Under the pieces are notes generated by a model. It searched no databases, was not told where the DNA came from, and saw only the letters and a program-made list of their open reading frames with translations. Positions 412 to 22,307 of a DNA stretch of 22,307 nt are shown here, one piece after another (positions within the stretch are counted from its first letter, which is position 1; each line of letters begins with the position of its first letter). The translations under genes were made by a program, and so were the position numbers. The stretch comes from a virus (Duplodnaviria > Heunggongvirae > Uroviricota > Caudoviricetes), in IMG/VR virus record IMGVR_UViG_2851949629_000003. One strand, 5' to 3'.

Positions 412-886
412 ATGTCTGCACCTGCACTGCCTGATGTCAGAACAGTATTTTGATGAATTGCCAAGGTTACAATGGCACAAATACGGCACAGGAGGAAACG
501 TGGTGTATTTAAATATGGGGTAACTCTTTGATTTGATAATAGGAACAAAACAAACAATAAAAACACATTGATATATAAAGATATTTTCACGTTACATCTT
601 TGGAGATACCCCCAAAAGTACCCCCAAACAATTTTCTCTCACCACCATTTGCACATAAAGCAGCCATGTACAACTGGTAGTTGAACAGGCGGGTAGACCG
701 TTCGTTCAGTAAATACCTGATATTTCCGCCAACGAGAAATTGCGTTGGCTGGCAGAGTGCAAATTTGCACGATGACCTAACCCATTGATTCTTTCGAAAA
801 CCTGCAATGCAGGAAGCCGGATAACACCATTTTTATAGCTCCGATCCCTTCAAAGTGAGGGGTAATTTGCCAAAACAGAGAGAGCA

Positions 887-1174
887 TTACTGTCTCTGGC
901 AATCTTTATCGCGATAACGCCTGAAGTACCCTCTCGCTTCCTCATCCATACCAAGAGCCGAATGAGTCCGCTTAACTGCCTGTCTTAAATCTCCGAATCT
1001 GTCTGTAGTTGCTGGTGGGCGTGCCGCCTTACGGATACATTCAGAGCGTCTGTTTGCTGCATGTTCACGTTCTTTATCGCCATCTGCCAGCATCATGACT
1101 TCTGCCCATCGTGCGGCAGCTCTCCGGTATAGCCCTTTTGACTCCAGTTCTTCAGCTTTCCTGTCCCTTATCAT
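887..1174 (-). CDS. PerC/Pch-family transcriptional activator-like protein (95 aa)
   Basis: ATG at 1174 with GAGAGG Shine-Dalgarno 5 nt upstream on the minus strand. The motif LESKGLYRRAAARWAEVM matches the PerC-family signature as I recall it. Confidence 0.65.
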   Translation of the reverse strand: MIRDRKAEELESKGLYRRAAARWAEVMMLADGDKEREHAANRRSECIRKAARPPATTDRFGDLRQAVKRTHSALGMDEEARGYFRRYRDKDCQRQ

Positions 1175-1203
1175 TTCTGCCTCTCAGATTATATAGATAA
1201 GCA

Positions 1204-1336
1204 AAAAGGTGTTGGTTCAGTTGGTTCAGTTGGTTCAATTTGTAAAGATCGTTGTTTTTATTGTGTTTTTTCTGAAATATTGAACCAACATCAACTCATT
1301 TTGAACCAACACAGCCCAGCTCTGAACCAACAACAC
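1204..1336. repeat. Iteron cluster A: three tandem GTTGGTTCA units (1211-1237) then three inverted TGAACCAAC units (1281-1334); candidate origin/cis-replication element
   Basis: Read directly. Bases 1204-1248 are a perfect 45-bp reverse complement of 11242-11286, with further imperfect similarity out to about 1336. Confidence 0.75.
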
Positions 1337-2597: not shown

Positions 2598-2693
2598 AAC
2601 GGCCCCATCAACGGGGATCGGATTTGAAATCCCGACCCAAGCTATGTACCAAATGCCATGTCTTGGATATATGATGATTGCCATTCTAAACAA
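2391..2693 (-). CDS. Doubtful hypothetical ORF (100 aa from a TTG start; 97 aa from ATG at 2684)
   Basis: No convincing Shine-Dalgarno. Its start is only ~26 bp from the divergent 2711 start. The repeated DNA motif falls in three different reading frames of this ORF, which argues it is non-coding. Confidence 0.2.
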   Translation of the reverse strand: MFRMAIIIYPRHGIWYIAWVGISNPIPVDGAVTVRAYPLYVKQQDFSDITATAKHQFRDQYAREGYQLQNFLQLRPTSTHTMAGDTMKLFSTRDRVVVMC

Positions 2694-2710
2694 CGCTAAA
2701 GGGGGTTGGT

Positions 2711-3325
2711 GTGAGCAGAAAAGATACTAAAGAATTGCTAACTATCTGCATGGTGTACTTTTCAATTTATTTTTGTGCATACATGATAGTCCCAGATGAG
2801 TTTGAACATGGCAGTATTATTTATTCCATAACATTCTATTTTTTAGAGCTAACACCAATTTTGGCTATCCTTTTGGCAATACATATTTATTTTTCCTTAA
2901 AAAAAGAATCGACTAATTGGGGGAAGGTATGGAGAGACAGAGGATTTCTAACATCACCTAAAGATGATGCATATGAGAGTGATTTTTCTGACTTTATAAC
3001 AAACTACTACTCCAGCGAACAATTCAAAAATAGACTGTCTGATGTTTGGGAAACAGCAATGTATTCCATAGGGATTATATTATTGATACTTACTGGTATT
3101 GCTCAATATGTTTTTAACATTAACTTATCATTAAATCCTGAAAATTTAATATCGCCATTGATTTTTGGTGAGATATTGATCTTCTCATTCGGAATTTTCT
3201 TGAGTGTTGTTCTCTGCTCATTATGCAAACTACTGACTAACAGGTATCCAGGTGAAGCAAGGAGAGCAAGAAAGGCAAATCCATATTATCTTTTATTTCC
3301 TAATGGAGACAGCAGAGATATCTAA
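2711..3325 (+). CDS. AT-rich integral membrane protein with four predicted transmembrane helices (204 aa); function unknown, candidate exclusion/defence effector
   Basis: GTG at 2711 preceded by AAAGGGGG (2698-2705). Roughly one-third G+C by eye, against ~50% or more in the flanks. Four long hydrophobic segments separated by a charged loop. Convergent with the split gene ending at 3344. Confidence 0.7.
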   Translation: MSRKDTKELLTICMVYFSIYFCAYMIVPDEFEHGSIIYSITFYFLELTPILAILLAIHIYFSLKKESTNWGKVWRDRGFLTSPKDDAYESDFSDFITNYYSSEQFKNRLSDVWETAMYSIGIILLILTGIAQYVFNINLSLNPENLISPLIFGEILIFSFGIFLSVVLCSLCKLLTNRYPGEARRARKANPYYLLFPNGDSRDI

Positions 3326-3343
3326 GCCATCCATGGCTACCAG

Positions 3344-4522
3344 TTATTGAGCTTCTTTTTGTGATGCCTGTGCGACTCTGGTGAGCGATTGTGTGACCGT
3401 ACTGATCGCTCTGTCATATGCTGTGCTACCTTTTGGCGTATTTGCCAAACGTAACAAGGCATTTCGTATAACAGGGCTTTCGTATGCCTTCGCGGCTCCG
3501 CCTACGGCACCAGCAGCAGGAACAACAAACGCAGCCGTTTTTAGCATCCCCGCTAATACTGCTGCGTTTATGATGCCACCACCAACTAACAATCCATAAA
3601 GCTGCTGACCATTTAAGTTTTGAACGTTCGCTTTTGCCGCGTGTCTTGTATCGTTGAGGTATTTAATAACGCCGTCCAGTTCCTTTCCATGTACGCCTTT
3701 AAAGAAAGTTGCTGATTGCTTCCTGTTCCGGTGTAACGCATTAATAAACTTCTCAACACTGATATTTCCAGACGGATCAGTCGCCTTATCTACAGCATTC
3801 TGAACTATGGCTGCTCGTGCGTTTTGCCTACCATTGTCATCCAGAAGCCTGTAAAGCTGAGAACGTTCTGATGGGCTTTGGCTAAAAACGAGTTTTGTTA
3901 CATCCTCAGGCGTGGCCTTGCCGCTGGCTATTGCCTTTTGAACGCGCGTTCTTCCCATCATGTCATTGAATTTAGACCATGAGCGATCAACCCTTGCCAT
4001 ATTAATGGCTTCGTCTGCTCCAAGATTTTTGGCTACGGCTTTTTTCATATCCGCCGTATATGCCTTGTAGATAATATCGCTGGCTTTCTGGAGCGTATCT
4101 TTATCAACAGTGTCAGATGACGCCATAAACCGCTTTCGAAGATCGGTTCTGTTTTCCCTCGCCAGACGCAGGTCATTTGGTCCGCTGGTGATATCGTCTT
4201 TAAATTGCTGCAAGACTTTTACCGCGGCTCTATCCTGAGATTTACCCGGGCGGCTTAACACAGCAATCTGATTGTCGATAGCTTTTACCGTGTTTGAGAG
4301 ATCGACAGGGGTATCCCCCATAGCGTCAATTATGCGGTTATATCGCTTTCCTGCTGCCTCAATGAATTTTTGTTGCCCTTTAGTCGCAGATTCATAAAGC
4401 TGTTTATCAGAAATGCCACCCAGACCATCGCTAAATGTTCTGACTAAATTTTCTCGTGCTTGTTGTTGATTCAGCCGATTCTTACCGGTTCCAAAAAAAG
4501 GAACTCTTTCGCCTAATGTCTG
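3344..4522 (-). pseudogene. 3' portion (392 codons) of a ~701-codon Q/A-rich gene split by IS66 copy 1
   Basis: The track ORF 3344-4321 stays open upstream with no stop to the IS boundary at 4522/4523. It is in frame with 7063-7989 once the IS and one target-duplication copy are removed. Confidence 0.7.
4515..4522. repeat. Left 8-bp target-site duplication AATGTCTG of IS66 copy 1
   Basis: Identical to 7055-7062, immediately outside the element ends. Confidence 0.85.
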
Positions 4523-4552
4523 GTAAGCGTTAACGGAGTGCCGTATTGACGC

Positions 4553-6166
4553 TTATTTATTGGTGAGTACTACGTTCCATGGCAGGAGTTCGTCAACTCG
4601 GTTGGAAGGCCATTCCGGCAGTACGCTCAGGATATGGCGCAGATACGCTTCCGGATCGATACCGTTCAAACGGCAGGTGCCGATCAGCCCGTACAACAGT
4701 GCTCCACGCTCGCCGCCGTGATCGCTGCCAAAGAACATAAAGTTTTTCTTTCCGAGACAGACTGCACGAAGCGCTCTTTCCGCAGCATTATTATCCGCCT
4801 CCGCCAGACCGTCATCACTGTAATAACAGAGGACATCCCACTGATTCAGTACATAGCTGAACGCTTCGCCCAGTCTGGATTTTTTCGACAGCGTACCATT
4901 CTTCTCCACCATCCATTCATGCAGCGACGTCAGTAACACTTTGCTTCGCTGCTGCCTGACCGCCAGGCGTTCAGACACCGGCAACCCGCGTATTTCGTGC
5001 TCAATGGCGTACAGTTCACTGATTCGCTTCAGGGCTTCTTCTGCCGTCGCACTTTTGCTGCTGATGTATACATCGTGGATTTTTCGCCGGGCATGGGCCC
5101 AGCACGCAACTTCTGTCAGTGCACCACCTTCACGTTCTGCACTGAACAACCTGTCGTAACCTGTGAACGCATCCGCCTGCAGGATACCCCGGAAGGGGCG
5201 GAGGTGTTGCTCCGGGTGTTTCCCCTGCCGGTTCGGCGAGTACGCGAACCAGACCGCTGGAGGAGATGACGAACCCACATTGCGATCATCCCGGACATAC
5301 GTCCAGATACGCCCTGTTTTCGCCTTTTTCTGACCCGGTGCCAGTACCTTTACCGGTGTGTCATCAGTGTGAACCTTGCGGGTGTTCATTACATAACGGT
5401 ACAGGGCATCATTCACCGGTGTCATTAACTGGCAGCACGCGTCAACCCAGTTGGAGAGTAAGGCCCGGCTCAGTTCGACACCCTGGCGGGCAAAGATTTC
5501 ACTCTGACGATACAGTGGCAGATGTTCGCAGTATTTTCCCGTTAACACGCGGGCAAGTAATCCGGGGCCCGCGATACCACGCTCTATCGGGCGGGACGGC
5601 GCCGGTGCTTCAACAATACAGTCACATTTTGTACAGGCTTTTTTTACCCGTTCTGTGCGGATCACTTTCAGGGCACTGCTCACCAGTTCCAGCTGTTCAG
5701 CGCTGACTTCCCCCAGATAATCCAGCTCACCGCCACACTCCGGGCAACAGCTTTCTTCTGGCTCCAGGCGGTGTATTTCACGGGGAAGGTGTGCCGGTAA
5801 CGGACGACGATGGCGCGACTGTCGCAACTGGCGGGGAACCTGAGGATCGTCTTCCCGCCCACTGTAACGATCGCTGTCCTGTTCACGTTGTTTCAGCAGA
5901 GCCTCAGCCAGTTCAACTTCACGACGCAGTTTTTCAGAACGGGTACCGAACAGCATCCGGCGCAGTTTTTCTATCTGAGCCCGCAGATGTTCTATTTCCC
6001 GTTCATCTTCTTCGATCTTTTCTTCGGCACGTGTCAGTGCAGAGCGCAGGAAGGCTTCCGTCTCTTCAACCAGACTCAGTTGCTGGTCTTTCTGACGGAG
6101 GGCTTCAGCCTGCTCAGAGAGCAACCTTTCCAGCTCTGCGATGCGAATGAGGTATTTCTGACTCAT
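4553..6166 (-). CDS. tnpC: IS66-family transposase TnpC (537 aa)
   Basis: Long ORF with coiled-coil N-terminus and Cys-rich zinc-finger-like segment (CPECGG...CTKCDC), typical IS66 ORF3 layout. About 90% identical to the second copy. Confidence 0.9.
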   Translation of the reverse strand: MSQKYLIRIAELERLLSEQAEALRQKDQQLSLVEETEAFLRSALTRAEEKIEEDEREIEHLRAQIEKLRRMLFGTRSEKLRREVELAEALLKQREQDSDRYSGREDDPQVPRQLRQSRHRRPLPAHLPREIHRLEPEESCCPECGGELDYLGEVSAEQLELVSSALKVIRTERVKKACTKCDCIVEAPAPSRPIERGIAGPGLLARVLTGKYCEHLPLYRQSEIFARQGVELSRALLSNWVDACCQLMTPVNDALYRYVMNTRKVHTDDTPVKVLAPGQKKAKTGRIWTYVRDDRNVGSSSPPAVWFAYSPNRQGKHPEQHLRPFRGILQADAFTGYDRLFSAEREGGALTEVACWAHARRKIHDVYISSKSATAEEALKRISELYAIEHEIRGLPVSERLAVRQQRSKVLLTSLHEWMVEKNGTLSKKSRLGEAFSYVLNQWDVLCYYSDDGLAEADNNAAERALRAVCLGKKNFMFFGSDHGGERGALLYGLIGTCRLNGIDPEAYLRHILSVLPEWPSNRVDELLPWNVVLTNK

Positions 6167-6196
6167 GACCGTTTTTATAATGCGGTCAGGAGTTTT

Positions 6197-6547
6197 TTAC
6201 AACATTGTCAGTGAGTTACGGCTGGATGTTTTTGGCTGACGCCAGTCCAGCTTATCGAGGAGCATTGCCAGTTGCGAGCGGGTAATGGATACCTTGCCGT
6301 CACGTACCGCAGGCCAGATAAACTGGCCTTCCTCCAGGCGTTTGGTGAACAGGCACAGACCATCAGCATCAGCCCAAAGAATTTTGACGGTGTCACCCCG
6401 TCGGCCACGGAAGATAAACAGGTGACCGGAGAAGGGATTATCATTCAGCACATGTTGTACCTGTTCTCCCAGTCCGTTGAAGGATTTACGCATATCGGTA
6501 ACGCCGGCAACGAGCCAGATACGGGTACCTGATGGGAGTGAGATCAT
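6197..6547 (-). CDS. tnpB: IS66-family TnpB accessory protein (116 aa)
   Basis: Middle ORF of the IS66 triplet. Its start overlaps the tnpA stop (6544-6547). Confidence 0.85.
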   Translation of the reverse strand: MISLPSGTRIWLVAGVTDMRKSFNGLGEQVQHVLNDNPFSGHLFIFRGRRGDTVKILWADADGLCLFTKRLEEGQFIWPAVRDGKVSITRSQLAMLLDKLDWRQPKTSSRNSLTML

Positions 6548-6969
6548 CTTCCCCTCCCGGTCAGTTCACGGATCAACACTGTGAGCAGCTCTGGCGATGG
6601 ATTTTCCAGCGTCATGTTACCGTGACGGAATTCCACCTTGCAGGAACTGGCACTGACTCTGGTCTGAGTGGAAGTGGATAAAGACGGCGCAATGGCCGCC
6701 ACAGGTTCTTTCTGCTCATCCGGCGTTATTTCTACAGGTAATAATTCAACGCCAGTGTCAGAAGAGGTCGTTACCGGAAGACGCCGCGAAACACGCCCTT
6801 CGTTCTGCCAGAGCCTGAGCCATTTGAAAATAACATTATCATTGACGCCATTTTCACGTGCAATCTGTGCAACACAAGCTCCAGGTTGTGATGCCAGTTC
6901 CACCATACGAAGTTTGAATTCATTCGAATAGTTTTTACGAGGTTCTTTTCGCCAGTCCTGTAATTCCAT
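6544..6969 (-). CDS. tnpA: IS66-family TnpA (141 aa, helix-turn-helix)
   Basis: First ORF of the IS66 triplet, with a conserved N-terminal DNA-binding-like segment (FKLRMVELASQPGA...IFKWLRLWQ). Confidence 0.85.
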   Translation of the reverse strand: MELQDWRKEPRKNYSNEFKLRMVELASQPGACVAQIARENGVNDNVIFKWLRLWQNEGRVSRRLPVTTSSDTGVELLPVEITPDEQKEPVAAIAPSLSTSTQTRVSASSCKVEFRHGNMTLENPSPELLTVLIRELTGRGR

Positions 6970-7054
6970 ACTTAGATGTCCGTCTATATCAGATGGGCGT
7001 CTAAGTTACCAATTCTCGTCTGATGGCTACATACGGCGGTCAGTTTACGCTTAC

Positions 7055-7062
7055 AATGTCTG
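7055..7062. repeat. Right 8-bp target-site duplication AATGTCTG of IS66 copy 1
   Basis: Identical to 4515-4522. Confidence 0.85.
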
Positions 7063-7989
7063 AGCCTGACTCTGCATAAAGGTTTTATCTTTCAGCATGT
7101 CACTGGTCATTAACGGCAGATTTCTTTCCGATGCAAAGTCGACAGCAGCCTTTGCTTCAGGCGACATATCACCACGAACAGCCCTCGAAACCGCACTCGC
7201 TGTATTTTCCAGCCCCTTACCAATACCACCAATGCCAGCAGAAATTACCGTTTGTAACGGATCAATATCTTCTCCACCAGCGAGGCTGGTGGCTCCCTGT
7301 AGTGCTAAATCTGTAGCTGCTGATTTCCCTATGGCCCCCAGCACCGTTCCGGCCCTGCCCGCTGGTGTAAACGCCAGCGCATTAGCCAGAAACGATGCCA
7401 CGTCTTGCGGCGATAAACCCGGCTTGTTCAGAGCATAATCACCGGATGGCAGGGAAACGATAGTGTTACCCTTCTCATCCTGCCTTAATTTCGCTCCCAT
7501 GCTCTGAAGAATCTTTTCCTGAGATGCGTCAGAGCCGAAAAGTTGAGACCATCGAGTTTTTAGAGCATCCATGCTGAGTGAGGTTAACTCTGGGGCAAGG
7601 TCGACATTTTGCAGTCTCTCCATCTCTGGAGTCATTCGGCTTTCGCCTGTTATAGCATCGCGCATCGCAGCCCCAAGGCTGGCTCCCTGTTCTGCTGAAC
7701 GCTCAAGCCCCTCTCTTTGCTGAGTAGCTAACTTTGCATACCCTGACGCAAGAGAATTATCAGATGATGTATGTTGAATATTTTGAGTTGCTGATTGGGC
7801 TCGGTCTATTTCATTCGTTGATGGTAGTGGATAGGCAGCATAAAAAGCCTGCTTAGCCTGCTCTACACTTTCTCCGGCTTGCGGGGCAACGACTTCATTG
7901 AAGTATTGCTCCTGAGCCTGCGCTTTTTGTTCTGGTGCTAACGCCTGATACTGTGGAGAAGCGATAACATCTTTCCATGCTTTAGCCAT
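7055..7989 (-). pseudogene. 5' portion (native codons 7063-7989, 309 aa) of the IS-split ~701-codon gene
   Basis: ATG at 7987-7989 overlaps the upstream stop (TAATG). The apparent stop at 7051-7053 lies inside the IS terminus. Frame continues into 4522 when the IS is excised. Confidence 0.7.
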
Positions 7990-9410
7990 TAATCACCCCA
8001 TAGTGAAGAAAAGTTACTGCTGGCTGCTGGCTGTGATACCTGCTCAGATTGCGGCAATGTCTGCGACGAAGAAGAAGTTCCTCTGTCAACTGCTGAAATA
8101 ACCCGCAAAGCATCATAAGCTCGACCAGAAGCAGCTTTCAGCGAATTGAACTGGTTTTCCATCTTCCGGCGCTTGGTATCAATGGTTTTTGTGGAGTCGC
8201 CAGGCTGAGGGAAATACATTTGATAATATTTTGACATTTCAGCAGGTACGATAGCTGCCCCTGTTTCCTGACGGAGTATTGCCATTATTGCGTCATTAGC
8301 ATTAACAACGTATTGCTGCTCTGTTGGGCTGAGCGTTAAGTTAGCCAGCGTCCCATTACCCAAAGCATTATTAATGATCGCCACTCGCTGTGGGCTAAGC
8401 TGGTCTTTCAGTGTATCTATTGAATCAAGAGCATCCCTAACCCTGTATGCAAATCCAGCAGCTTTTTTAGCCCCTTCTGGCGACTTTTCCATGATCTTTT
8501 GGGCTGTTGGCAAAGCTATTGGACGAAACCCATCTCCAGATATTGGCTGGTTTAGTTTTCCCTGCTCTTCACTTCCGTCTGTGTAGTATTTTGTGACAGT
8601 GCCATCATCGTTTTCTCTAACACTCATTAATTTTTTGGCGTTTGTATTAATTCCAGCCGCTGCCGCAAATGCCGCCGCCCCCTCTGGATCCTCCTTTAAC
8701 ATTTGAGCGTACTGATTGTAATTCTGCATTGCTGCTGTTGGTGCATATGCTGACGTTAACGCATTTGCTCGGCTAATATCCTGCCCTCTCGCCTGAAGTG
8801 CTTCGCCAGCCTGATTGCTGCGGATTGTTTCTGCCAACTTGCCACGCTCAATATCCCGACCTTCCATTTGATCTTTGATATCGAAATACTTCTCATGACC
8901 GAGAGAAAACAGTGCCATACTACCAGCAAGCCGCTGGAATCCCTGTGGATCATTAACATGCATTTCGGCAACAGACTCAGGAGAAATTCCCAAGCGACGC
9001 ATTTCATCTTCGTTATCTGCTATGAATTTTCCAAATGCCCCAGTTCCGAGCGAAGATGCGATTTGAGCACTAGTCGCAAGATGACCAATAGAATTTCTCT
9101 GGTCGTCATCAATAAAGCCCATCCCTTTCTGAACGCTTTCAAATTCTTCTGGATACTCAGAAATAAGACTGCGCATTTTGTTTCTGTCTCCAGACTCAAA
9201 AGCCCCGGCATATGCTTTCTGAAACTCTGCTTTACGCTGTTGTTGACGTGCCTGCTGATTAATCTCAGCAACGCCTCTTAGCCCCTGTAGCGCCATTAAA
9301 CCTACGTTTGGCTGCTGCTGATACTGCACAGGCTGAGGAACGGAAGAACGAGGAGCATTATCATTTTGCGGTGCCATGCTAGGCAGCCCGCCAAGTTGCC
9401 ATGTCGCCAT
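7989..9410 (-). CDS. Q-rich low-complexity protein (473 aa); possible phage ejection/DNA-transfer-type protein
   Basis: Coupled to both neighbours by TAATG overlaps at 9410 and 7989. Q/A-rich, coiled-coil-like composition. Family assignment is inference. Confidence 0.75.
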   Translation of the reverse strand: MATWQLGGLPSMAPQNDNAPRSSVPQPVQYQQQPNVGLMALQGLRGVAEINQQARQQQRKAEFQKAYAGAFESGDRNKMRSLISEYPEEFESVQKGMGFIDDDQRNSIGHLATSAQIASSLGTGAFGKFIADNEDEMRRLGISPESVAEMHVNDPQGFQRLAGSMALFSLGHEKYFDIKDQMEGRDIERGKLAETIRSNQAGEALQARGQDISRANALTSAYAPTAAMQNYNQYAQMLKEDPEGAAAFAAAAGINTNAKKLMSVRENDDGTVTKYYTDGSEEQGKLNQPISGDGFRPIALPTAQKIMEKSPEGAKKAAGFAYRVRDALDSIDTLKDQLSPQRVAIINNALGNGTLANLTLSPTEQQYVVNANDAIMAILRQETGAAIVPAEMSKYYQMYFPQPGDSTKTIDTKRRKMENQFNSLKAASGRAYDALRVISAVDRGTSSSSQTLPQSEQVSQPAASSNFSSLWGD

Positions 9411-10087
9411 TAGAATCCAAGCCCCCCAACAAGACCAATAAGCCCACCACCAATAGCCCCGGCGACATTACCTATACCCGGAACAACGGAACCAAGTTGC
9501 GCACCCGCTAAAGCGCCTGATGCCGCCCCACCAATACCACGCGCAAGACTGGATGGCTGCTGCGCCTGACCTGCACGAATAGCGCCAAGCCCCTGCAAGA
9601 GTTGCCCGGTATTATTGGCGTAGTTTTGCCCTGCTGTTGCCTGCCCTGATGCCGCATTCATCCCGACATTTAGCAGGTTTCCATAATTTTGCATTTGCCC
9701 ACTGAGCCAATTGTTATAAAGCATGGGCGCAATGGAAGATAACTGGTTACTGGTAGCTGTTGAGCCAAGCCCCCCGGTAGCTTCTGCTGAGACAAGGTTC
9801 TGATAACGGGCCTGATCTGCCTGTGTTTTATATAAACCAGAACCAAAGAAATCATTCGCGGCTTTATTCTGCCCTTCCAGAGTCATCAGTCCTTGTAGTT
9901 GTTGTAAAGCAGGCAATCCGACTTCTGCATACGGCTTGAGATTATTCATCACCGTATTCCACTGCTCGCGCTGCAAATCAATTGCCTGCTGCTGGGCCTT
10001 CGCCTGAGCTTTAGAGGCACCACCATCACCGCCTTTTTCGTATACGGCACGATTGAGATGTTTATGAGCTATATGGGTAATTAACAT
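9410..10087 (-). CDS. Gly/Gln-rich protein with glycine-zipper-like hydrophobic C-terminus (225 aa); possible ejection-type protein
   Basis: Start overlaps the upstream stop by 7 nt (ATGTTAA). C-terminus GIGGAASGALAGAQLGSVVPGIGNVAGAIGGGLIGLVGGLGF. Confidence 0.75.
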   Translation of the reverse strand: MLITHIAHKHLNRAVYEKGGDGGASKAQAKAQQQAIDLQREQWNTVMNNLKPYAEVGLPALQQLQGLMTLEGQNKAANDFFGSGLYKTQADQARYQNLVSAEATGGLGSTATSNQLSSIAPMLYNNWLSGQMQNYGNLLNVGMNAASGQATAGQNYANNTGQLLQGLGAIRAGQAQQPSSLARGIGGAASGALAGAQLGSVVPGIGNVAGAIGGGLIGLVGGLGF

Positions 10088-10542
10088 TCGCTGAGTTCCT
10101 TATATTGTTGCCGTGTTAACTGATAAAGCGTTACGCCGACGGGTTTACCACATCTGATATATGCATCGGCCAGGTGACCAACACGGGTAGCGCCAAGCAA
10201 ACGGATAATTGCCCGTCCGTATTTCGTGGTGTCAGGAACCATGGTGATGCTGTTAAGGAATGGTGAGTTTTCGAGAAGCCATTTGCAGAACAATCGATGC
10301 CCTTGCAGTGCATATTCACCACGGAATCCGGGGTCGTACACCGCATGGCATTCAACAATGCTATGCCAGAAGTTACGCACTTCATGAACGCCTGTCAGCA
10401 CTAATCCTTCGTAGATGCCGAGATATACCGCATCAGGCTTGATGTAGTACGTGTGCCCCGGCTCAACAATATTTTCGGTATTGCCAGGCTCGTTAAGAAA
10501 GGCCTGTAATCGCACCGGGTTATCAATAAATTTTAGTTCCAT
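10081..10542 (-). CDS. Hypothetical protein (153 aa), first large gene of the cassette
   Basis: ATG at 10542 with weak GGATGG Shine-Dalgarno. Coupled to the downstream gene. Confidence 0.7.
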   Translation of the reverse strand: MELKFIDNPVRLQAFLNEPGNTENIVEPGHTYYIKPDAVYLGIYEGLVLTGVHEVRNFWHSIVECHAVYDPGFRGEYALQGHRLFCKWLLENSPFLNSITMVPDTTKYGRAIIRLLGATRVGHLADAYIRCGKPVGVTLYQLTRQQYKELSEC

Positions 10543-10558
10543 GCGGTGCCATCCGTTT

Positions 10559-10720
10559 TCACATACAGCCTGCCAGCGCCTTATCTATTAACCCTCGTGC
10601 AATTTCATGCAGAGTTGGCGCTACTCCAATTCCTGATTTTTTACGCTGCTCTTCCTGAATTTTCTTTATCGCTTCCATTTGCTTCTCACTTATCAATACC
10701 GGCTTTACTGAAATAGCCAT
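10559..10720 (-). CDS. Small hypothetical protein (53 aa), possible leader or small regulator of the cassette
   Basis: Not in the supplied track (under 60 aa). ATG at 10718-10720 preceded by AAGGGGG. Translates to MAISVKPVLISEKQMEAIKKIQEEQRKKSGIGVAPTLHEIARGLIDKALAGCM. Stop is 17 bp before the 10542 start. Confidence 0.4.
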   Translation of the reverse strand: MAISVKPVLISEKQMEAIKKIQEEQRKKSGIGVAPTLHEIARGLIDKALAGCM

Positions 10721-10738
10721 AACGCCCCCTTAGAACTG

Positions 10739-10790
10739 TATAAAACAACAGTTATTATAGTTTCGCAAATCGCAATATTCATCATCGTAA
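10739..10790 (-). promoter_or_regulatory. Candidate sigma70 promoter for the cassette operon
   Basis: Minus-strand TATAAT (plus 10754-10759) about 34 nt upstream of the 10720 ATG. The -35 is weak, with two TTGCGA repeats nearby. Confidence 0.25.
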
Positions 10791-10813
10791 TTGCAAAATA
10801 TGAAACAAATAGC

Positions 10814-10846
10814 ACAAAAAAACGCCACCGCTCAGTAGCTGGTGGC
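10814..10846 (-). terminator. Rho-independent terminator on the minus strand, downstream of the primase operon and iteron cluster B
   Basis: Minus-strand RNA GCCACCAGCUACUGAGCGGUGGC (GC-rich stem) followed by GUUUUUUUG. Confidence 0.55.
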
Positions 10847-11160: not shown

Positions 11161-11286
11161 CACATTGTGTTGGTTCAAAATACCGTGTTGTTGGTTCAGT
11201 GTTGGTTCAATAAAAAGAATAAAATCATTATAAAACAATACTCTTTACAAATTGAACCAACTGAACCAACTGAACCAACACCTTTT
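11161..11286. repeat. Iteron cluster B: three GTTGGTTCA units (11169-11209) and three tandem TGAACCAAC units (11253-11279); inverted copy of cluster A, directly 3' of the primase gene
   Basis: Read directly. 11242-11286 is the exact reverse complement of 1204-1248. Confidence 0.75.
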
Positions 11287-11304: not shown

Positions 11305-14064
11305 TCATTCTTCAGATGAGTTATAATCTCCTGGCTGGTAATTGAGTACATAAACGTTTATTTGTCGTCCCTGAATACGTGGTGATTTTCTTTGGTATCC
11401 ACGACCGCTGTTTGGTGGGGTTAGCATCCCGGCTTTTTTCAACACTTCAGCAAACTGTTTTGCGTTGAAACCACATGCGATCTCCTTTTCAAATGTGGCC
11501 GGGAATGTGTAGAAAATCATTGGGCTTTCGTCATGTTCTCCACGCTGACGGTATCCGGCTAAATCTTTGATGGGCAAATCTGCCGGGCTGTATGGAAATG
11601 GTGCAAAACGGCTAAGCCCATAGGCATTAAGAAATGCCTCCGTTTGTTCAATAATCTGCTGATGTTCTTTGTTACCTGTGCCGAACTCGCGCAACCATGC
11701 GTTATAGCTGTGCTGTATCGCATCACGGCATGTCTGAGCATCCCAGCCTGTTACAACCTCGCCTAACAGCAATGCGGCCTCCAGAATGGCAAATCGCGCG
11801 GCTACACGGTGAACCTGCTCACCATAATCGGATGGGATCAGACTTCTCCATCTGCTTTCGCAGTCACGAACAGTTTTAATTGCCTGTTGCTGGTGGTCTG
11901 CCAGCCATTTAATCCACTCACGCCCGGCTGCGCCGTGGTGATGCTGGTAAGCGTCTTTCAGTGCGTCTGCGTGCTGTTTTCCGTTCTGGTAATCGTGAAA
12001 GCGTACTGCTTTACTCAACGGAATATTCAGCAGTCGCACCAGTTGCCCGGCTTTGGTTTTTCGCCCGGAAGTAGCGATAAATGTTTCTAAATCCATTTCT
12101 CCGGTGCTGATTGCCACTGTACGCCAGCGTTTTAGATCCCGGTTTCCACCATCTTTAGCGCCTTGCAGTTTCCCTACACCGTTAAATAACGCATAGGCAG
12201 ACTGTGAAACGCTGACAGGATCTGCGCCCTGACCAACTTCATCAAGCGGCATTAGTCCGTCATTGTGGGCGGCAGCTTCATTTGCCAGCCCCAGCGCGGT
12301 TCCGTACCACGTCAGCCGCAGTAAATCAGGGTTGCCGTATAAGCTGCTCGCCACGTTTGCCGTGGTGGTCTTACCTGCGCTCGACTGCTCATAGAAATGA
12401 ATGCCGAACCCGTCAGCGCCCACCAGCCCAATCAATGGCGCTGCCAGTGCTGCGCCGATCCCGGTCATCATTGAATAGTTACCAAAGGCCAGACGCGCCA
12501 CGCTATCACGCCAGCTTTTCGCGCTCCCTGAGATAGTATATCCGGCTGCGGCTGAGCTTCTCCCGCTGAACAGCACAGGATTTTCAGGTGTTCCGATGAT
12601 TTCCCCATCAGGCATGATGTACGCTCCGCATTGCCAGCCAGTGGCATGAGCAACACGCCACAATTCACGAGAGCCACTGCGTTGTAGCCAGTCTGCCAGT
12701 ATTGCTCTGAGGCTGCTTTTGGTCGTGACATTTACCCCACCAGCTTTAAGTGTGCGCCATCCTTCACGTTCACCAATATCAGCCAGTGGAATGGCAGCGG
12801 TTGTCGGCGTTTCAGAACCAAACGACAGCCAGCGAAGAATGAGATACTGGTCTTTATCGTCTCTGCCAGTACCGATAACGCTTAACGGAGAACATAACCA
12901 GCTTTCGTTATTGATGATTTCTCCACTCTGGCTGTCAGCTCTCGGAGATACCCAATAAATACCATCCTCGCGGCTTTCTATTCTTGGTTTCAGTGGGTCG
13001 GTATCCATAACCTTAAAATCGCTTCCTTCAATGGTCTGTGGCTCCTGTTTCACGCCATTACCCTGTGGTTGGTACATTGATTTATTGAACGCTTCTGTAG
13101 CGCATTTAATGCCGTGTTTTTGGTGGTAATCATTCCAGTCTGCTTTGTGATCTGTCGGGGGTAATGCCACCCATCCAGAAACAGATAAAGCTGCTTTTTC
13201 TGCTGCTATTCTCCCCGTGTTTTGTCTTCCTTCGCTGTGGTCGTTATCCGCAGCAATGATGATTTGTGCTGAAGGAAATTTATCCCGCAGTACCTGGGCG
13301 ACATATAACAGGTTCCCGGCATCAATCGCCGCCACTGTCAGCGCCTCTGGACGAATTAAATGGGCAGATAATGCCGTTGCCAGCCCTTCTGCGATTAAGA
13401 TGCTCTGTGTTGTTTCTGGTGCGTTTATGGCGTGATATGCCCCTCGCTTTGCTGAACCTGTCAGGAGTCTTTTTTCACCATGTGAGGTAATAGTCTGTGC
13501 TGCTGTTACTGCGCCGGATTTATCCACCAGCGCCAGCAACAGAGATCCATCGGGCAACACGGGGAATGTAAAATCACCTACCCCTTTCGCAACCAGATAA
13601 TCAGATTTGCCGTTTACAGCCTTTCTGCGCATGTCATCAAACTGACGGGAAAACGTATCCCGTCTTTGTTGTTCGTCCTTCTCTGCCCTTTTCAGGCGCT
13701 CCTGTTCGCGTCGCTGGCGCTCGGTTTCCAGTTGTTCCCGTTTCTGGCTGGTGGCTTCTGGTGTTTCCGTTGTCCGGTAATCAATACCCAGAACATCAGC
13801 GGCAAGAAGCGCCGCCTCTGTTGTGTCGCAGTTATTTACGCGTTTAATTAAATCCAGCCCATCACCAGCGCCGCACTGATTACAGATGAAGCTACCGCGC
13901 CCGTTGTCATCGAACCGGAATCGATCTTTACCCCCACATGCAGGGCAGGGAGCATGACGGCGTGGAGAGTCAGGGACATTTATGTTCAGGCAGCCCAGCA
14001 CATGAGGCCAGTTGTTTTCAGACGCACTGATAACCTGACGGATAAGATCAATGTTTCGCATCAC
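11305..14064 (-). CDS. Primase-helicase (P4 alpha-like architecture: zinc ribbon + TOPRIM + P-loop NTPase), 919 aa
   Basis: Zinc ribbon CPACGG...CNQCG near the N-terminus, TOPRIM-like acidic motif IIIAADNDH, P-loop-like SAGKTTT. GTG at 14064 or ATG at 14061. Iterons lie immediately downstream. Confidence 0.85.
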   Translation of the reverse strand: MMRNIDLIRQVISASENNWPHVLGCLNINVPDSPRRHAPCPACGGKDRFRFDDNGRGSFICNQCGAGDGLDLIKRVNNCDTTEAALLAADVLGIDYRTTETPEATSQKREQLETERQRREQERLKRAEKDEQQRRDTFSRQFDDMRRKAVNGKSDYLVAKGVGDFTFPVLPDGSLLLALVDKSGAVTAAQTITSHGEKRLLTGSAKRGAYHAINAPETTQSILIAEGLATALSAHLIRPEALTVAAIDAGNLLYVAQVLRDKFPSAQIIIAADNDHSEGRQNTGRIAAEKAALSVSGWVALPPTDHKADWNDYHQKHGIKCATEAFNKSMYQPQGNGVKQEPQTIEGSDFKVMDTDPLKPRIESREDGIYWVSPRADSQSGEIINNESWLCSPLSVIGTGRDDKDQYLILRWLSFGSETPTTAAIPLADIGEREGWRTLKAGGVNVTTKSSLRAILADWLQRSGSRELWRVAHATGWQCGAYIMPDGEIIGTPENPVLFSGRSSAAAGYTISGSAKSWRDSVARLAFGNYSMMTGIGAALAAPLIGLVGADGFGIHFYEQSSAGKTTTANVASSLYGNPDLLRLTWYGTALGLANEAAAHNDGLMPLDEVGQGADPVSVSQSAYALFNGVGKLQGAKDGGNRDLKRWRTVAISTGEMDLETFIATSGRKTKAGQLVRLLNIPLSKAVRFHDYQNGKQHADALKDAYQHHHGAAGREWIKWLADHQQQAIKTVRDCESRWRSLIPSDYGEQVHRVAARFAILEAALLLGEVVTGWDAQTCRDAIQHSYNAWLREFGTGNKEHQQIIEQTEAFLNAYGLSRFAPFPYSPADLPIKDLAGYRQRGEHDESPMIFYTFPATFEKEIACGFNAKQFAEVLKKAGMLTPPNSGRGYQRKSPRIQGRQINVYVLNYQPGDYNSSEE

Positions 14065-17984: not shown

Positions 17985-18014
17985 GTAAGCGTCAACGGAG
18001 CACCGTATTGACGC

Positions 18015-19628
18015 TTATTTATTAGTGAGTACTACGTTCCATGGCAGGAGTTCGTCAACTCGGTTGGAAGGCCATTCCGGCAGTACGCTCAGGATATGGC
18101 GCAGATACGCTTCCGGATCGATACCATTCAACCGGCAGGTGCCGATCAGCCCGTACAACAGTGCACCACGCTCGCCGCCGTGATCGCTACCGAAGAACAC
18201 GTAATTTTTCTTTCCGAGACAGACTGCACGAAGCGCTCTTTCCGCTGTGTTATTGTCCGCCTCCGCCAGACCGTCATCACAGAAGTTGCACAACGCAACC
18301 CAGTGCTTCCTGATATACCGGAACGCATCTCTCAGACGGCATTTTTTCGATAACGTGTGTTCTTTCTCCTGCATCAGCTTATACAGGGAAGTCAGTAGCG
18401 GTTTACTCTGCATTTGCCTGACCGCCAGGCGTTCAGACACCGGCAACCCGCGTATTTCGTGCTCAATGGCGTACAGTTCGCCGATTAGTTTCAGTGCTTC
18501 TTCCGCCGTCGCGCTTTTGGTACTGATATATACATCGTGGATTTTGCGCCGCGCATGAGCCCAGCATCCTGCTTCCGTCAACGCGCCGCCTTCACGTTCG
18601 GCACTGAACAGCCGATCGTAACCTGCGAACGCATCTGCCTGCAGGATACCCCGGAAGGGACGAAGGTGTTGCTCCGGATGTTTACCCTGATGGTCCGGTG
18701 AGTAGGCGAACCAGACCGCCGGAGGTTCTGGCGAACCGGCATTTCGGTCATCCCGGACATACGTCCAGATATATCCTGTTTTCGCCTTCTTCCTGCCCGG
18801 TGCCAGTACTTTTACTGGTGTGTCATCAGTGTGAACCTTGCGGGTGTTCATCACATAACTGTACAGGGCATCATTCAGCGGAGTCATTAACTGGCAGCAC
18901 GCATCAACCCAGTTGGAGAGTAAGGCACGGCTCAGTTCGACACCCTGGCGGGCAAAGATTTCACTCTGACGATACAGTGGCAGGTGTTCGCAGTATTTTC
19001 CCGTTAACACGCGGGCAAGTAACCCCGGGCCCGCGATACCACGCTCTATCGGACGGGATGGTGCCGGTGCTTCAACGATGCAGTCACATTTTGTACAGGC
19101 TTTTTTTACCCGTTCTGTGCGGATCACTTTCAGGGCGCTGCTCACCAGCTCCAGTTGTTCTGCGCTGACTTCCCCCAGATAATCCAGCTCACCGCCACAC
19201 TCCGGGCAACAGCTTTCTTCAGGCTCCAGGCGGTATATTTCACGGGGGAGATGTGCCGGTAACGGACGACGATGGCGCGACTGTCGCAACTGGCGGGGAA
19301 CCAGCGGGTCATCCTCACGCCCACTGTAACGATCGCTTTCCTGCTCGCGTTGTTTCAGCAGGACTTCAGCCTGTTCAACCTCACTACGCAGTTTTTCAGA
19401 ACGGGTTCCGAACAGCATCCGGCGCAGTTTTTCTATCTGAGCCCGCAGATGCTCTATTTCTCGCTCATCTTCTTCGATCTTTTCTTCGGCACGTGCCAGT
19501 GCAGAGCGCAGGAAGGCCTCCGTCTCTTCAACCAGACTCAGTTGCTGGTCTTTCTGACGGAGGGCTTCAGCCTGCTCAGAGAGCAGCCTTTCCAGCTCAG
19601 CGATGCGAATGAGGTATTTCTGACCCAT
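18015..19628 (-). CDS. tnpC: IS66-family transposase TnpC (537 aa), copy 2
   Basis: Collinear with the copy-1 TnpC, about 90% identical by eye. Confidence 0.9.
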   Translation of the reverse strand: MGQKYLIRIAELERLLSEQAEALRQKDQQLSLVEETEAFLRSALARAEEKIEEDEREIEHLRAQIEKLRRMLFGTRSEKLRSEVEQAEVLLKQREQESDRYSGREDDPLVPRQLRQSRHRRPLPAHLPREIYRLEPEESCCPECGGELDYLGEVSAEQLELVSSALKVIRTERVKKACTKCDCIVEAPAPSRPIERGIAGPGLLARVLTGKYCEHLPLYRQSEIFARQGVELSRALLSNWVDACCQLMTPLNDALYSYVMNTRKVHTDDTPVKVLAPGRKKAKTGYIWTYVRDDRNAGSPEPPAVWFAYSPDHQGKHPEQHLRPFRGILQADAFAGYDRLFSAEREGGALTEAGCWAHARRKIHDVYISTKSATAEEALKLIGELYAIEHEIRGLPVSERLAVRQMQSKPLLTSLYKLMQEKEHTLSKKCRLRDAFRYIRKHWVALCNFCDDGLAEADNNTAERALRAVCLGKKNYVFFGSDHGGERGALLYGLIGTCRLNGIDPEAYLRHILSVLPEWPSNRVDELLPWNVVLTNK

Positions 19629-19658
19629 GGCCGTTTTTATAATCCGGCCCGGCGTTTT

Positions 19659-20009
19659 TTACAACATTGTCAGTGCGTTAAGGCGGGATGTTTTTGGCTG
19701 ACGCCAGTCCAGCTTATCGAGGAGCATTGCCAGTTGCGAGCGGGTAATGGATATCTTACCGTCATGCACCGCAGGCCAGATAAACTGACCTTCCTCAAGG
19801 CGTTTGGTGAACAGGCACAGACCATCAGCATCAGCCCACAGGATTTTAATCGTGTCTCCCCGTCGGCCACGGAAGATAAACAGGTGACCGGAGAAGGGGT
19901 TATCATCCAGCACATGCTGTATCTGCTCCCCCAGACCGTTGAAGGATTTACGCATATCAGTAACGCCGGCAACGAGCCAGATACGGGTACCTGATGGGAG
20001 TGAAATCAT
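19659..20009 (-). CDS. tnpB: IS66-family TnpB (116 aa), copy 2
   Basis: Collinear with the copy-1 TnpB. Confidence 0.85.
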   Translation of the reverse strand: MISLPSGTRIWLVAGVTDMRKSFNGLGEQIQHVLDDNPFSGHLFIFRGRRGDTIKILWADADGLCLFTKRLEEGQFIWPAVHDGKISITRSQLAMLLDKLDWRQPKTSRLNALTML

Positions 20010-20443
20010 CGTCCCCTCCCGGTCAGCTCACGGATCAACACCGTGAGCAGCTCTGGTGAAGGATTTTCCAGCATCATTTTACCGTAATGGAATTCCACAT
20101 GGCAGGAAGCTGCACAAGCAACTGATAATGCCTCCGGAGCAGGAGCATCTGTAGCACAGCGCGGGGTGTCGATAAGTTCCACTGGAACCAGAGTCGGAGA
20201 GGCCGGAAAAGATTGTGATACTGTAGGGCCTACAATAGTTGGAGGCATTCTACGAGAAATACGTCCTTCTCTTTGCCAGAGGCGTAGCCATTTAAAAATC
20301 AGGTTGTTATCAACGCCATGTTCCCGGGCCAGTTGTGCAACATTGGCATTTGGTTTCGAAGCCAGTTCAACCATATGAAGTTTAAATTCATTAGAAAATA
20401 TCCGGCGGGTTCCGGAGCGCCAGTCTGTAGGTTTATCCATCAA
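20006..20443 (-). CDS. tnpA: IS66-family TnpA (145 aa), copy 2
   Basis: Conserved N-terminal segment (FKLHMVELASKP...IFKWLRLWQ); middle region diverged from copy 1. Confidence 0.85.
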   Translation of the reverse strand: MMDKPTDWRSGTRRIFSNEFKLHMVELASKPNANVAQLAREHGVDNNLIFKWLRLWQREGRISRRMPPTIVGPTVSQSFPASPTLVPVELIDTPRCATDAPAPEALSVACAASCHVEFHYGKMMLENPSPELLTVLIRELTGRGR

Positions 20444-20521
20444 TAGAACTCCGTCTAATTTAGAAGGAGCTCTAATTTAGTCTGCAAGGAGCAGGTGTTA
20501 CAGACGGCATTGGCTTTACGC

Positions 20522-20665
20522 TTACACAAAAGCAATTGCCCGACTTCCAATTTTTACCTGTTTAGGGAACCTCCCCTGACTAATAAGACGATAAATCCAT
20601 GCTTTGCTATAACCAGTTCGCCTTTGAACTTCAGAGAGACGAATTAATGAATTGTAATTAGCCAT
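20522..20665 (-). pseudogene. alpA: alpA-like (AlpA-family helix-turn-helix regulator) gene, 3' end truncated by IS66 copy 2
   Basis: Not in the track (47 codons). ATG at 20663-20665 with AGGA upstream. Translates to MANYNSLIRLSEVQRRTGYSKAWIYRLISQGRFPKQVKIGSRAIAFV; the stop codon is supplied by the IS terminus. Intact AlpA-family proteins are about 65-70 aa, so roughly 20 codons are missing. Confidence 0.6.
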
Positions 20666-21092: not shown

Positions 21093-22307
21093 TCATGCGT
21101 GTTTTTCAAACACCATATGCACCACATTTCCGCCATGCTCGAGAGAATCCATATAGTCGGCATACCATTGAAGCATCTCCCGCCGTCCATCCAGATATTG
21201 CGCATGGTTGTATGTGCCACGAATTGAGTTCTTATCAACGTGAGCGAGCTGCGTTTCTATCCACGCGGTGTTATAGCCCTGCTCATGCAAAATCGTGCTC
21301 ATAGTGTGTCGGAACCCATGACCAGTTACACGTCCAGCGTAGCCAATGCGCTTAAACACTTGGTTTATGCTGGCCTCACTCATTGTTTTCCTTGGATCAT
21401 TGCGCCCGGGAAACATAAGAGGGTAATTGCCTGTTATTTCTCTAATCTTCCCAATAAGCGAAAGAGCCTGCTCAGACAATGGCACAATATGAGGCCGCCG
21501 CATTTTCATACGTGAAGCGGGTATCTCCCATATAGCCTTGTTGAAATCAATTTCATCCCATAATGCGCCACGTAGTTCGCCAGTTCGCAAGCCGGTGATA
21601 ATCAGTAGGCGAGCCGCCATAACAACCAATGCGCTTCCTGAGTAACTGGATAATGCCTTGAAAAAATCAGGTAATTCTTTGGTCGTAAGGAAAGGGTAAT
21701 GATTAGATTCATGGCCTTGCATCGCGCTAGTAAGGTCTGGTGCAGGGTTATACTCTGCGCGACCAGTGACTATTGCATAGCGGAAAACTTCCCCGCACCG
21801 CTGCCTCACTTTTTTGGCTTTTTCTGTCGCACCGCGCCCCTCGATGCGCCGCAGCACATTCAGAAGTTCAAGTGGTTTGATTTCGGCGATTGGTTTTTTG
21901 CCAATGTAAGGGAACACATCTTTGTTGAAGGCTTCGAGGATGTCTGAAGCATAACCAGCAGACCATTTTTTTAATTTGCTGCTGTGCCACTCAAGGGCAA
22001 TATCTTTGAAGGTGTTGTTTAACTGCGTTTCCCGGGCAATCTTTTCCTCTCGTTTCGCTTCCATCGGATCGATACCACCAGCGATACCTCTTTTCGCATC
22101 TTCACGTTTTGCCCGAGCATCGGCTAGAGTAACCTCAGGATACACACCTAGTGCCAATAGCTTCTCTTTACCAGCTACACGATATTTAAGTCGCCAGTAT
22201 TTACCTCCATTAGGTTTTACCAAGAGATACAAACCGCCACCATCGGCCAGCTTGTAAGCCTTCTCTTTTGGCTTGGCTGTGTCTATTTGACGGGCATTGA
22301 GTTTCAC
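21093..22307 (-). CDS. int: P4-type tyrosine integrase (404 aa in window; N-terminus at or beyond the right edge)
   Basis: Catalytic-region motifs GLRTGELRGALWDEIDF, GHGFRHTMST and RGTYNHAQYL; N-terminal KPKEKAYKLADGGGLYLLVKPNGGKYWRLKY arm-binding-like segment. Start codon at the window edge is GTG, so the gene may begin outside. Confidence 0.9.
   Translation of the reverse strand: MKLNARQIDTAKPKEKAYKLADGGGLYLLVKPNGGKYWRLKYRVAGKEKLLALGVYPEVTLADARAKREDAKRGIAGGIDPMEAKREEKIARETQLNNTFKDIALEWHSSKLKKWSAGYASDILEAFNKDVFPYIGKKPIAEIKPLELLNVLRRIEGRGATEKAKKVRQRCGEVFRYAIVTGRAEYNPAPDLTSAMQGHESNHYPFLTTKELPDFFKALSSYSGSALVVMAARLLIITGLRTGELRGALWDEIDFNKAIWEIPASRMKMRRPHIVPLSEQALSLIGKIREITGNYPLMFPGRNDPRKTMSEASINQVFKRIGYAGRVTGHGFRHTMSTILHEQGYNTAWIETQLAHVDKNSIRGTYNHAQYLDGRREMLQWYADYMDSLEHGGNVVHMVFEKHA

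Follow-up and report, generated by a model that had tools for sequence, protein, structure and literature searches.

The stretch of DNA analysed here, a window of 22,307 nucleotides (IMG/VR record IMGVR_UViG_2851949629_000003), carries between positions 3344 and 10720 a set of genes that correspond to those for the DNA-ejection proteins of phage P22. The region is almost certainly the DNA-delivery module of a phage-inducible chromosomal island (PICI) of the EcCIMP1 family, a satellite of P22-like podoviruses located at thrW. Sequence comparison shows that four proteins of the module and a SieA-like protein encoded next to them belong to the P22 gp14, gp7, gp20, gp16 and SieA families. The likely role of these genes would be that of a DNA-delivery kit supplied by the satellite, with a linked exclusion function. 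The best explanation found, which takes the identity of the element together with the mechanism described below, is given about an even chance of being correct. Known satellites alter the capsid size, the packaging specificity or the tails of their helpers; for none of them, to our knowledge, has a DNA-ejection machinery of its own been demonstrated.

The first-pass annotation of this DNA had proposed five coupled minus-strand genes with products of 53, 153, 225, 473 and about 701 amino acids (aa), and had likened their order and sizes to P22 genes 14-7-20-16. All five are confirmed by the open reading frames (ORFs) and by a reconstruction in which an IS66-family element was excised: the first four ORFs are found at the proposed positions and sizes within 3344-10720, and the fifth gene is split. 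The module and the gene following it are made up as follows.

10559..10720, minus strand: 53-aa ORF that leads the module; it belongs to the backbone of this island family and does not derive from P22
10081..10542, minus strand: P22 gp14 homologue (DUF2824, 'head assembly' protein), 153 aa, by Pfam and PHROG
9410..10087, minus strand: P22 gp7 homologue (outer-membrane ejection protein), 225 aa, by Pfam and PHROG
7989..9410, minus strand: P22 gp20 homologue (periplasmic tunnel ejection protein), 473 aa, by Pfam and PHROG
7063..7989, minus strand: P22 gp16 homologue, 5' part, codons 1-309, upstream of the insertion element, by reconstruction and phrog_770
3344..4522, minus strand: P22 gp16 homologue, 3' part, codons 310-701 and the stop codon, by reconstruction and intact orthologues
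2711..3325, plus strand: SieA-like inner-membrane superinfection-exclusion protein, 204 aa, by similarity, motif and position

As read, the gp16 homologue consists of two ORF fragments, 7051-7989 and 3344-4321. When the IS66 element and one copy of its target duplication are removed, 7063-7989 is joined to 3344-4522 and an uninterrupted gp16 ORF of 701 codons results; an identical 701-aa protein is intact in other genomes. The RefSeq (PGAP) label of the EC38 gp16 gene (locus L001, 13112-14927) as a pseudogene 'missing C-terminus' is not borne out, as that ORF is full length, with 701 codons, no internal stop and 2 nucleotide differences from the window. The coupling of stop and start codons that had been proposed holds for the four larger genes, with ATGTTAA at the junction of the 153- and 225-aa genes and TAATG at the 225/473 and 473/701 junctions. 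It does not extend to the 53-aa ORF, which is separated from the 153-aa gene by a gap of 16 nt. The hydrophobic tail described for the 225-aa protein is present and is rich in Gly and Ala.

All four homologies to P22 proved right by Pfam, PHROG and blastp, and the sizes of 229, 471 and 609 aa given for the P22 proteins are correct. The 153-aa protein matches PF11039 (DUF2824, the P22 gp14 family) with 204 bits (E 1.7e-60) and phrog_651 with an E value of 2e-65. The 225-aa protein matches PF25688 (P22_gp7) with 244 bits (E 1.9e-72) and also phrog_598, and the 473-aa protein matches PF16928 (Inj_translocase, the gp20 family) with 197 bits (E 5.7e-58) and phrog_917 (E 1e-111). The Pfam gathering cut-offs of DUF2824, PF25688 and PF16928 are 25, 28 and 29.7 bits, respectively. 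Among the PHROG families, the 701-aa protein falls in 770, 'DNA transfer protein' (E 1.5e-161), and blastp aligns it with P22 gp16 (30% identity over 482 aa, E 7e-52). A direct Pfam search of the 701-aa protein gave no match in this analysis; a record of the identical protein elsewhere carries PF26808 (Phage_P22_gp16). No match was obtained in an NCBIfam search of the six module proteins. In the ejection conduit, gp7 has been placed in the outer-membrane, gp20 in the periplasmic-tunnel and gp16 in the inner-membrane part (PMC8954989).

The relationship of the individual proteins to those of known phages varies along the module. The gp14 homologue is 83% identical to gp14 of the P22-like podovirus vB_EcoP_Kapi1 (Kapi1) and 24% identical to P22 gp14, and the DNA similarity of its gene to P22-like phages stops at the start codon. 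The gp7 homologue is 56-57% identical to its P22 and Kapi1 counterparts. The closest phage allele of the 473-aa gp20 is that of APSE P33 (53%), and the closest phage allele of the 701-aa gp16 is that of phage N7 (67%).

The 53-aa leader is 100% identical across 13 E. coli island loci and has no match in Pfam, PHROG or NCBIfam. Its AlphaFold2 (AF2) model has an extended N-terminus and two helices. This layout (strand region, helix, helix) is as expected for an Arc/Mnt-like ribbon-helix-helix regulator, but Foldseek against the Protein Data Bank (PDB) gave no fold match, hhalign against P22 Arc and Mnt gave nothing, and the assignment was abandoned.

A sixth P22-type gene, the SieA-like gene at 2711-3325, was absent from the first-pass annotation. 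The gene converges on the gp16 homologue, the two stop codons lying 18 bp apart, and its position and orientation are those of P22 sieA, after gene 16. The protein shares 33% identity with SieA of prophage HS1, which is of type B (E 7e-8), and 29% with P22 SieA (E 4e-6). It matches the SieA PHROG, phrog_7745 (E 3.5e-4), and PF26849 (SIEA) is recorded as a weak match on the same 204-aa protein. The published motif FxRYPxEAxxFNK has as its counterpart here NRYPGEARRARK, which includes NRYPGEA. At about 30% identity to known SieAs, the 204-aa protein may represent a further SieA type.

The synteny with P22 that had been suggested is thus exact, in gene order as well as in the convergent sieA. The window shares with the P22-like phages (P22 14-7-20-16-sieA and the equivalents in Sf6 and HK620) five gene families, their order, their orientation and the translational coupling, and in these phages too the ejection-protein alleles are mosaic and exchangeable. 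Unlike in the phages, the module lies outside a virion late operon; it is placed behind a satellite primase with its own promoter and leader ORF, and the island gp16 and gp20 alleles are distant from those of any sequenced phage.

The element itself is best compared with EcCIMP1, a published 19,963-bp PICI of E. coli MP1 (Pick, Stadel & Raivio, ISME J 2025; PMC11773190), which is excised and transduced only when Kapi1 is present (PMC11773190). The two share the thrW site, the att core and the gene order int, alpA, antA, DUF4222, ash, primase, 53-aa ORF, gp14, gp7 ... perC. Their proteins are nearly the same: identity is 99.8% for the integrase, 99.5% for the primase, 100% for the 53-aa ORF, 99.6% for gp7 and 96.7% for gp14. 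The distal parts of the modules are different. The window has a gp20 of 473 aa, a gp16 of 701 aa and the SieA-like gene, whereas the MP1 island has a gp20 of 439 aa, a gp16 of 906 aa with an N-terminal lytic transglycosylase, and a 232-aa lipoprotein. In the window copy, moreover, alpA is truncated, gp16 is split and two IS66 elements are present. The island backbone and its borders are represented in the window by the following features.

21093..22307, minus strand: P4-type tyrosine integrase, 404 aa, extending to the window edge, identified by its identity to the EcCIMP1 integrase
20522..20665, minus strand: truncated alpA, a 47-aa ORF left of the 67-aa master regulator (PF05930, E 2e-13; comparison with intact islands)
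11305..14064, minus strand: island primase (Zn-ribbon/Toprim/DUF927), 919 aa, identified by its identity to the EcCIMP1 primase
11166..11286, no strand assigned: iteron cluster of GGTTCA repeats around an AT-rich stretch, just 3' of the primase gene; presumed island origin
887-1174: PerC-family regulator gene at the distal end of the island
535..544, no strand assigned: attR core GATAATAGGA at the distal island end, the reverse complement of the published TCCTATTATC (PMC11773190)

The int, alpA and primase backbone thus runs in one orientation by a tRNA att site, as is expected of an island, with alpA truncated in this copy. In complete E. coli genomes the same island is found at tRNA-Thr (thrW), between proA and the pao/yagU region; thrW itself and attL fall outside the window and are present in near-identical loci (thrW context in L001 and L002). 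Intact relatives measure 18,521 and 19,963 bp, within the 10-20 kb island class. The other island genes are those for AntA, DUF4222, Ash and small ORFs before the primase, with a short variable stretch between the module and PerC, and a LysR-family gene fragment lies past the attR core. The EcCIMP1 paper ties island regulators to repression of the LEE pathogenicity island (PMC11773190). A transcriptome study reports that EcCIMP1 genes are up-regulated in Kapi1 lysogens, without naming them (PMC12922286).

The first-pass annotation had seen no capsid, portal or terminase genes, and Pfam scans of the sizeable ORFs of the window found none, nor any lysis gene. The P22 neighbours of the block are likewise missing from the window, there being no gp26, gp10, gp4, coat, portal or terminase gene upstream of the module and no tailspike gene downstream. 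The earlier description of the element as a P4-type island stands insofar as it is a satellite that shares with P4-like satellites a P4-type integrase, AlpA, an Ash-family protein and a large primase; EcCIMP1-like is the better description. A further shared feature is a pair of iteron clusters at some distance from each other, which recall P4 ori and crr. The island differs from P4-like satellites in that psu, sid and delta gave no Pfam matches among the scanned ORFs of the window, which did not include every ORF below about 70 aa, and in that the helper is a P22-like podovirus rather than the P2-like myovirus of P4 (PMC11773190).

The second iteron cluster, at 1204-1313, adjoins perC and is inverted relative to the one at 11166-11286, about 10 kb away. 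The two GGTTCA/TGAACC clusters are complementary over 55 nt at 95% and 38 nt at 82%, and the ejection module with its cargo lies between them. The perC-side iterons are kept in EcCIMP1 (window 1091-1311 against L002 10616-10836, 89.6%). Between sieA and perC there is a variable cargo site, which in other islands holds Abi_2, RnlAB or a Schlafen-like gene; the 365 bp at 1845-2209 stand where EC38 and L006 have a 1.4-kb segment with an Abi_2 abortive-infection gene.

The module is widespread in islands. The gp20 protein of the window recurs in identical form on at least 847 contigs. Among those listed there are 10 distinct contexts, every one of them an island, with at least three integration sites and two primase types; none of the 10 contains virion late-operon genes, and the 701-aa gp16 is intact in eight. 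A scan of GTDB species-representative genomes with gp7 peptide patterns returned almost only full prophages: 28 of the 29 enterobacterial gp7 loci lie in complete P22-like prophages, with late-operon genes present, and one lies in an island, so that carriage of these genes by an island is exceptional. The best tracer of the islands of other genera was the 53-aa leader. Its homologues, with 70-87% identity, head the same operon in islands of Citrobacter, Serratia and Klebsiella. In Citrobacter the order after the primase is 53aa-gp14-gp7-gp20-gp16(SLT)-lipoprotein.

Two further branches carry shorter or different operons behind the leader. In the Serratia island (L048-L050, 10001-14653) the leader is followed by gp20 and a gp16 with an SLT domain, without gp14 or gp7, and then by a gene for a 91-aa membrane-anchored protein on the opposite strand. 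In Klebsiella michiganensis (L051-L053, 10001-12649) it is followed by genes for a 605-aa phrog_7694 protein, which has tape-measure and injection-transglycosylase-like (injection-lysin-like) regions, and a 168-aa TerS-like protein. The operon slot is filled in this branch by another kind of injection- and packaging-type genes.

Comparison of the E. coli MP1 and Citrobacter islands gives a ratio of non-synonymous to synonymous substitutions (dN/dS) of 0.04-0.09 at dS above 1 for gp14, gp7, gp20, gp16 and the lipoprotein; within E. coli, where substitutions are few, the ratio is about 0.07-0.1. Judged by these ratios, the module is under purifying selection. The window-type and MP1-type islands are near-identical save for a clean replacement of window positions 2639-9249, a unit that takes in three-quarters of gp20, on its C-terminal side, together with gp16 and the envelope-protein gene behind it. 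Taken together, the conservation, the dN/dS values, the intact copies and the clean swap indicate that the module is a maintained part of the satellite family, exchanged at least once, and not inert debris.

A small envelope-protein gene directly follows gp16 in every island variant compared. In the window it is the SieA-like gene; MP1 and Citrobacter have a lipoprotein of 232 aa, L055 has one of 74 aa, and Serratia has the 91-aa membrane protein. The MP1-type lipoprotein (L002, 12632-13330; Citrobacter L054, 15353-16171) is a predicted one with a LAGC lipobox and stands in the place of SieA; it is 88% conserved between Escherichia MP1 and Citrobacter (dN/dS 0.04). EcCIMP1 brings additional immunity to superinfection by Kapi1, and none of the known defence systems was detected in the island (PMC11773190). 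The 232-aa lipoprotein is a candidate source of this immunity.

Upstream of the leader there are three elements that may govern the module.

10736..10759, minus strand: putative promoter core of the module, with the -10 hexamer TATAAT at 10754-10759 followed by a LexA-box-like site, as read from the sequence
10771..10795, minus strand: conserved inverted repeat TGCAAT-N13-ATTGCG at the -35 position, conjecturally a regulator site
10824..10839, minus strand: hairpin and T-run resembling an intrinsic terminator, between the primase/ori region and the module promoter

The LexA-box-like CTGTTGTTTTATACAG, of the form CTGT-N8-ACAG, is at 10736-10751, directly after the perfect -10 hexamer, and this pattern occurs only once in the whole window. 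The islands of Citrobacter and Serratia keep both the hexamer, as TATAAT, and the box, and the Serratia box agrees with 17 of the 20 positions of the E. coli consensus; the Klebsiella hexamer reads TAAAAT. The hexamer and box were picked by eye and are backed by the cross-genus alignment. Scanned for consensus sigma-70 sites, the DNA upstream of the module yielded neither a promoter nor a consensus -35 hexamer. The placement of the hairpin suggests that the module is its own transcription unit. IMG/VR matches to a 31-mer of the promoter are isolate-genome prophage calls and are uninformative on packaging.

SOS control of the module may be inferred from the box, by analogy with operon I of the staphylococcal PICIs (SaPIs). 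Operon I is an accessory satellite operon that follows the replication module and carries helper-related morphogenesis genes, as does the module of the window, and it is under LexA control (Ubeda et al. 2007, pmid 17581119). The SaPI operon is a LexA-repressed operon of packaging and interference, whereas LexA control of the window module, with its apparent SOS box, is a prediction; operon I has terS, cpm and pti where the window has ejection proteins.

It is proposed that a P22-like phage was the source of the captured block and that its distal part was later exchanged again. In the mechanism put forward here, somewhat tentatively, DNA damage would induce the helper prophage, and LexA cleavage would derepress the module. 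The satellite's ejection proteins would then go into helper procapsids, beside the helper's own or replacing them. At 18.5-20.0 kb, an intact island is about half as long as the 39.4-kb Kapi1 genome, and a headful would hold about two island copies. Particles containing this DNA would open the recipient envelope with the satellite's matched gp20 and gp16; this pair is the target of SieA-type exclusion, and the sensitivity of the particles to exclusion might be altered. Once the island has integrated, its SieA-like protein would keep out the DNA of other P22-like phages. All of the steps, from expression to incorporation to benefit, are inferred.

The properties of P22 ejection proteins are in keeping with several of these steps. 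Whole foreign ejection-protein sets assemble into P22 and work, and gp16 and gp20 assemble independently but need to be a matched pair, failing which the particles form and are non-infectious (PMC10883804). Mutations that escape SieA map to the C-terminal regions of gp16 and gp20, and the HK620 ejection-protein set partly evades SieA (PMC10883804).

Several points weigh against the proposed delivery role. The main weakness is that helper procapsids already hold the helper's ejection proteins, so that the satellite set is not strictly needed and the advantage of a second set is argued rather than read from data; the presence of the island proteins in particles is itself a prediction. Kapi1 transduces EcCIMP1 very inefficiently, and its titres are unchanged by the island (PMC11773190). 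Compared with their Kapi1 counterparts, the gp20 and gp16 of EcCIMP1 reach an identity of only 26% and 24%, and mixed sets could harm rather than help. Type A and type B SieA excluded most of the foreign ejection-protein sets tested (PMC10883804), so that evasion through the choice of allele is not guaranteed. The predicted LexA box agrees with only 14 of the 20 consensus positions in E. coli and is one base off in Klebsiella. Decay of the module recurs, gp16 being broken in the window, in L005 and in L012, and gp14 in L005. Finally, the purifying selection could stem in part from evolution in phages before capture.

The same low identity to Kapi1 could be read as a sign of interference, the satellite flooding helper procapsids with mismatched gp20 and gp16 so that helper virions assemble and then fail to deliver their DNA, which would parasitise or restrain the helper. 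When P22 is given a single foreign gp16 or gp20, particles form in normal numbers but are non-infectious, and foreign gp16 is built into them (PMC10883804). Satellites, moreover, typically interfere with their helpers (PMC11773190, discussion). This reading is nevertheless quite unlikely, because Kapi1 titres after induction are not lowered by EcCIMP1 (PMC11773190), such poisoning would cripple the satellite's own particles too, and gp14, gp7 and the retention of a matched pair through the module swap would be superfluous to it.

The immunity conferred by EcCIMP1 and the envelope-protein gene that follows gp16 in every variant also fit a role as defence cargo, in which the resident island would exclude superinfection by means of SieA or the lipoprotein, perhaps with ejection proteins as decoys at the envelope, and incorporation into virions would be irrelevant. 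SieA does act on gp16 and gp20 (PMC10883804). However, P22 SieA alone suffices for exclusion (PMC10883804), which leaves four large linked genes unexplained, the operon should, from its LexA-type box, be silent in the absence of induction, which is when exclusion is needed, and no precedent is known for entry being blocked by ejection proteins made in the cytoplasm; the probability of this reading is accordingly put low.

That the module is a hitch-hiking remnant of a P22-like prophage, fused to the island by a deletion in a tandem array at thrW, is very improbable: P22-like prophages do share the thrW site and orientation and stand in tandem with P4-integrase islands in E. coli HS, nearly all gp7 loci of the species-representative genomes are in full prophages, and the window copy is broken, but the low dN/dS at high dS between island copies of two genera, the conserved dedicated promoter and leader gene, the intact state of most copies at several integration sites, and the complete replacement set re-acquired by the MP1-type island all speak against it. 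The E. coli HS prophage, HS1 (L046, 6742-48341), has the same thrW site and orientation, genes 14-7-20-16 and a convergent sieA, and its tandem arrangement with a P4-integrase BREX island could yield island/prophage chimeras by deletion. This second P4-integrase island was considered as an EcCIMP1 relative and rejected, as it is a BREX island.

The copy in the window is decayed. Two IS66-family elements account for the damage.

4523..7054, minus strand: IS66-family element (tnpA/tnpB/tnpC), 2,532 bp, inside the gp16 homologue, by its ends, ORFs and duplication
17985..20525, minus strand: second IS66-family copy, without target duplication, by alignment with intact islands

The first has terminal repeats GTAAGCG...CGCTTAC and is flanked at 4515-4522 and 7055-7062 by copies of AATGTCTG, a target duplication of 8 bp without mismatch; its three ORFs match HTH_Tnp_1, TnpB_IS66 and DDE_Tnp_IS66 in Pfam, which places it in the IS66 family. 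A search of 5,426 complete E. coli genomes did not turn up the junction between gp16 and this element, so that the insertion is private and recent. The second copy, which shares about 94% identity with the first over a compared stretch of 300 nt, replaces 616 bp comprising the 3' end of alpA, an entire 143-aa gene and the 5' end of antA; its lack of a duplication beside a deletion suggests an IS-mediated adjacent deletion. Since alpA is required for excision of EcCIMP1 (PMC11773190) and is truncated here, helper-dependent excision and transfer of this copy are unlikely. With gp16 split and alpA partly deleted, the system is dead in this copy, which is decayed, immobilised and of no special interest by itself. 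Elsewhere the gp16 orthologue is intact (L001, L006-L011, L013 and L014).

The earlier suggestion that an ejection-protein set on a satellite would be unusual holds, in that island carriage is exceptional; it requires amendment in that the element and its 'DNA transfer/DUF2824' genes had already been published (PMC11773190). Pick et al. drew these genes and guessed a packaging role, without identifying them as 14-7-20-16 or reporting a SieA homologue (PMC11773190). EcCIMP1 is thus the one published case in which such genes were seen and not understood. The explicit 14-7-20-16-sieA identity, the conservation across genera, the swap of gp20, gp16 and the envelope gene, and the promoter with an SOS box were not found in the literature searched.

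The finding is of significance because a complete P22-type 14-7-20-16 set with a linked exclusion gene is found, under purifying selection as far as the substitution ratios tell, in islands of at least three genera. What the two E. coli island types have exchanged is the gp20/gp16 pair, the targets of SieA, and these are also the sole ejection genes kept in Serratia; the entry step thereby becomes a concrete point of conflict between satellite and helper. The genes of the module also offer candidate explanations for the superinfection immunity of EcCIMP1, and the function of a satellite-borne ejectosome is now a well-posed experimental question. A wider and speculative proposal, which is rather unlikely to hold, is that a family of podovirus satellites in enterobacteria carry their own SOS-controlled ejectosome, minimally the matched gp20 and gp16 as in Serratia, and that their particles use a conduit chosen by the satellite. 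If this were true, the satellites would be able to enter cells protected by a helper-type SieA, that is, the lysogens in which future helpers live, and the linked envelope gene would shut the door behind the satellite. Such satellites would represent a new class of strategy, in which the entry step is hijacked rather than capsid size or packaging.

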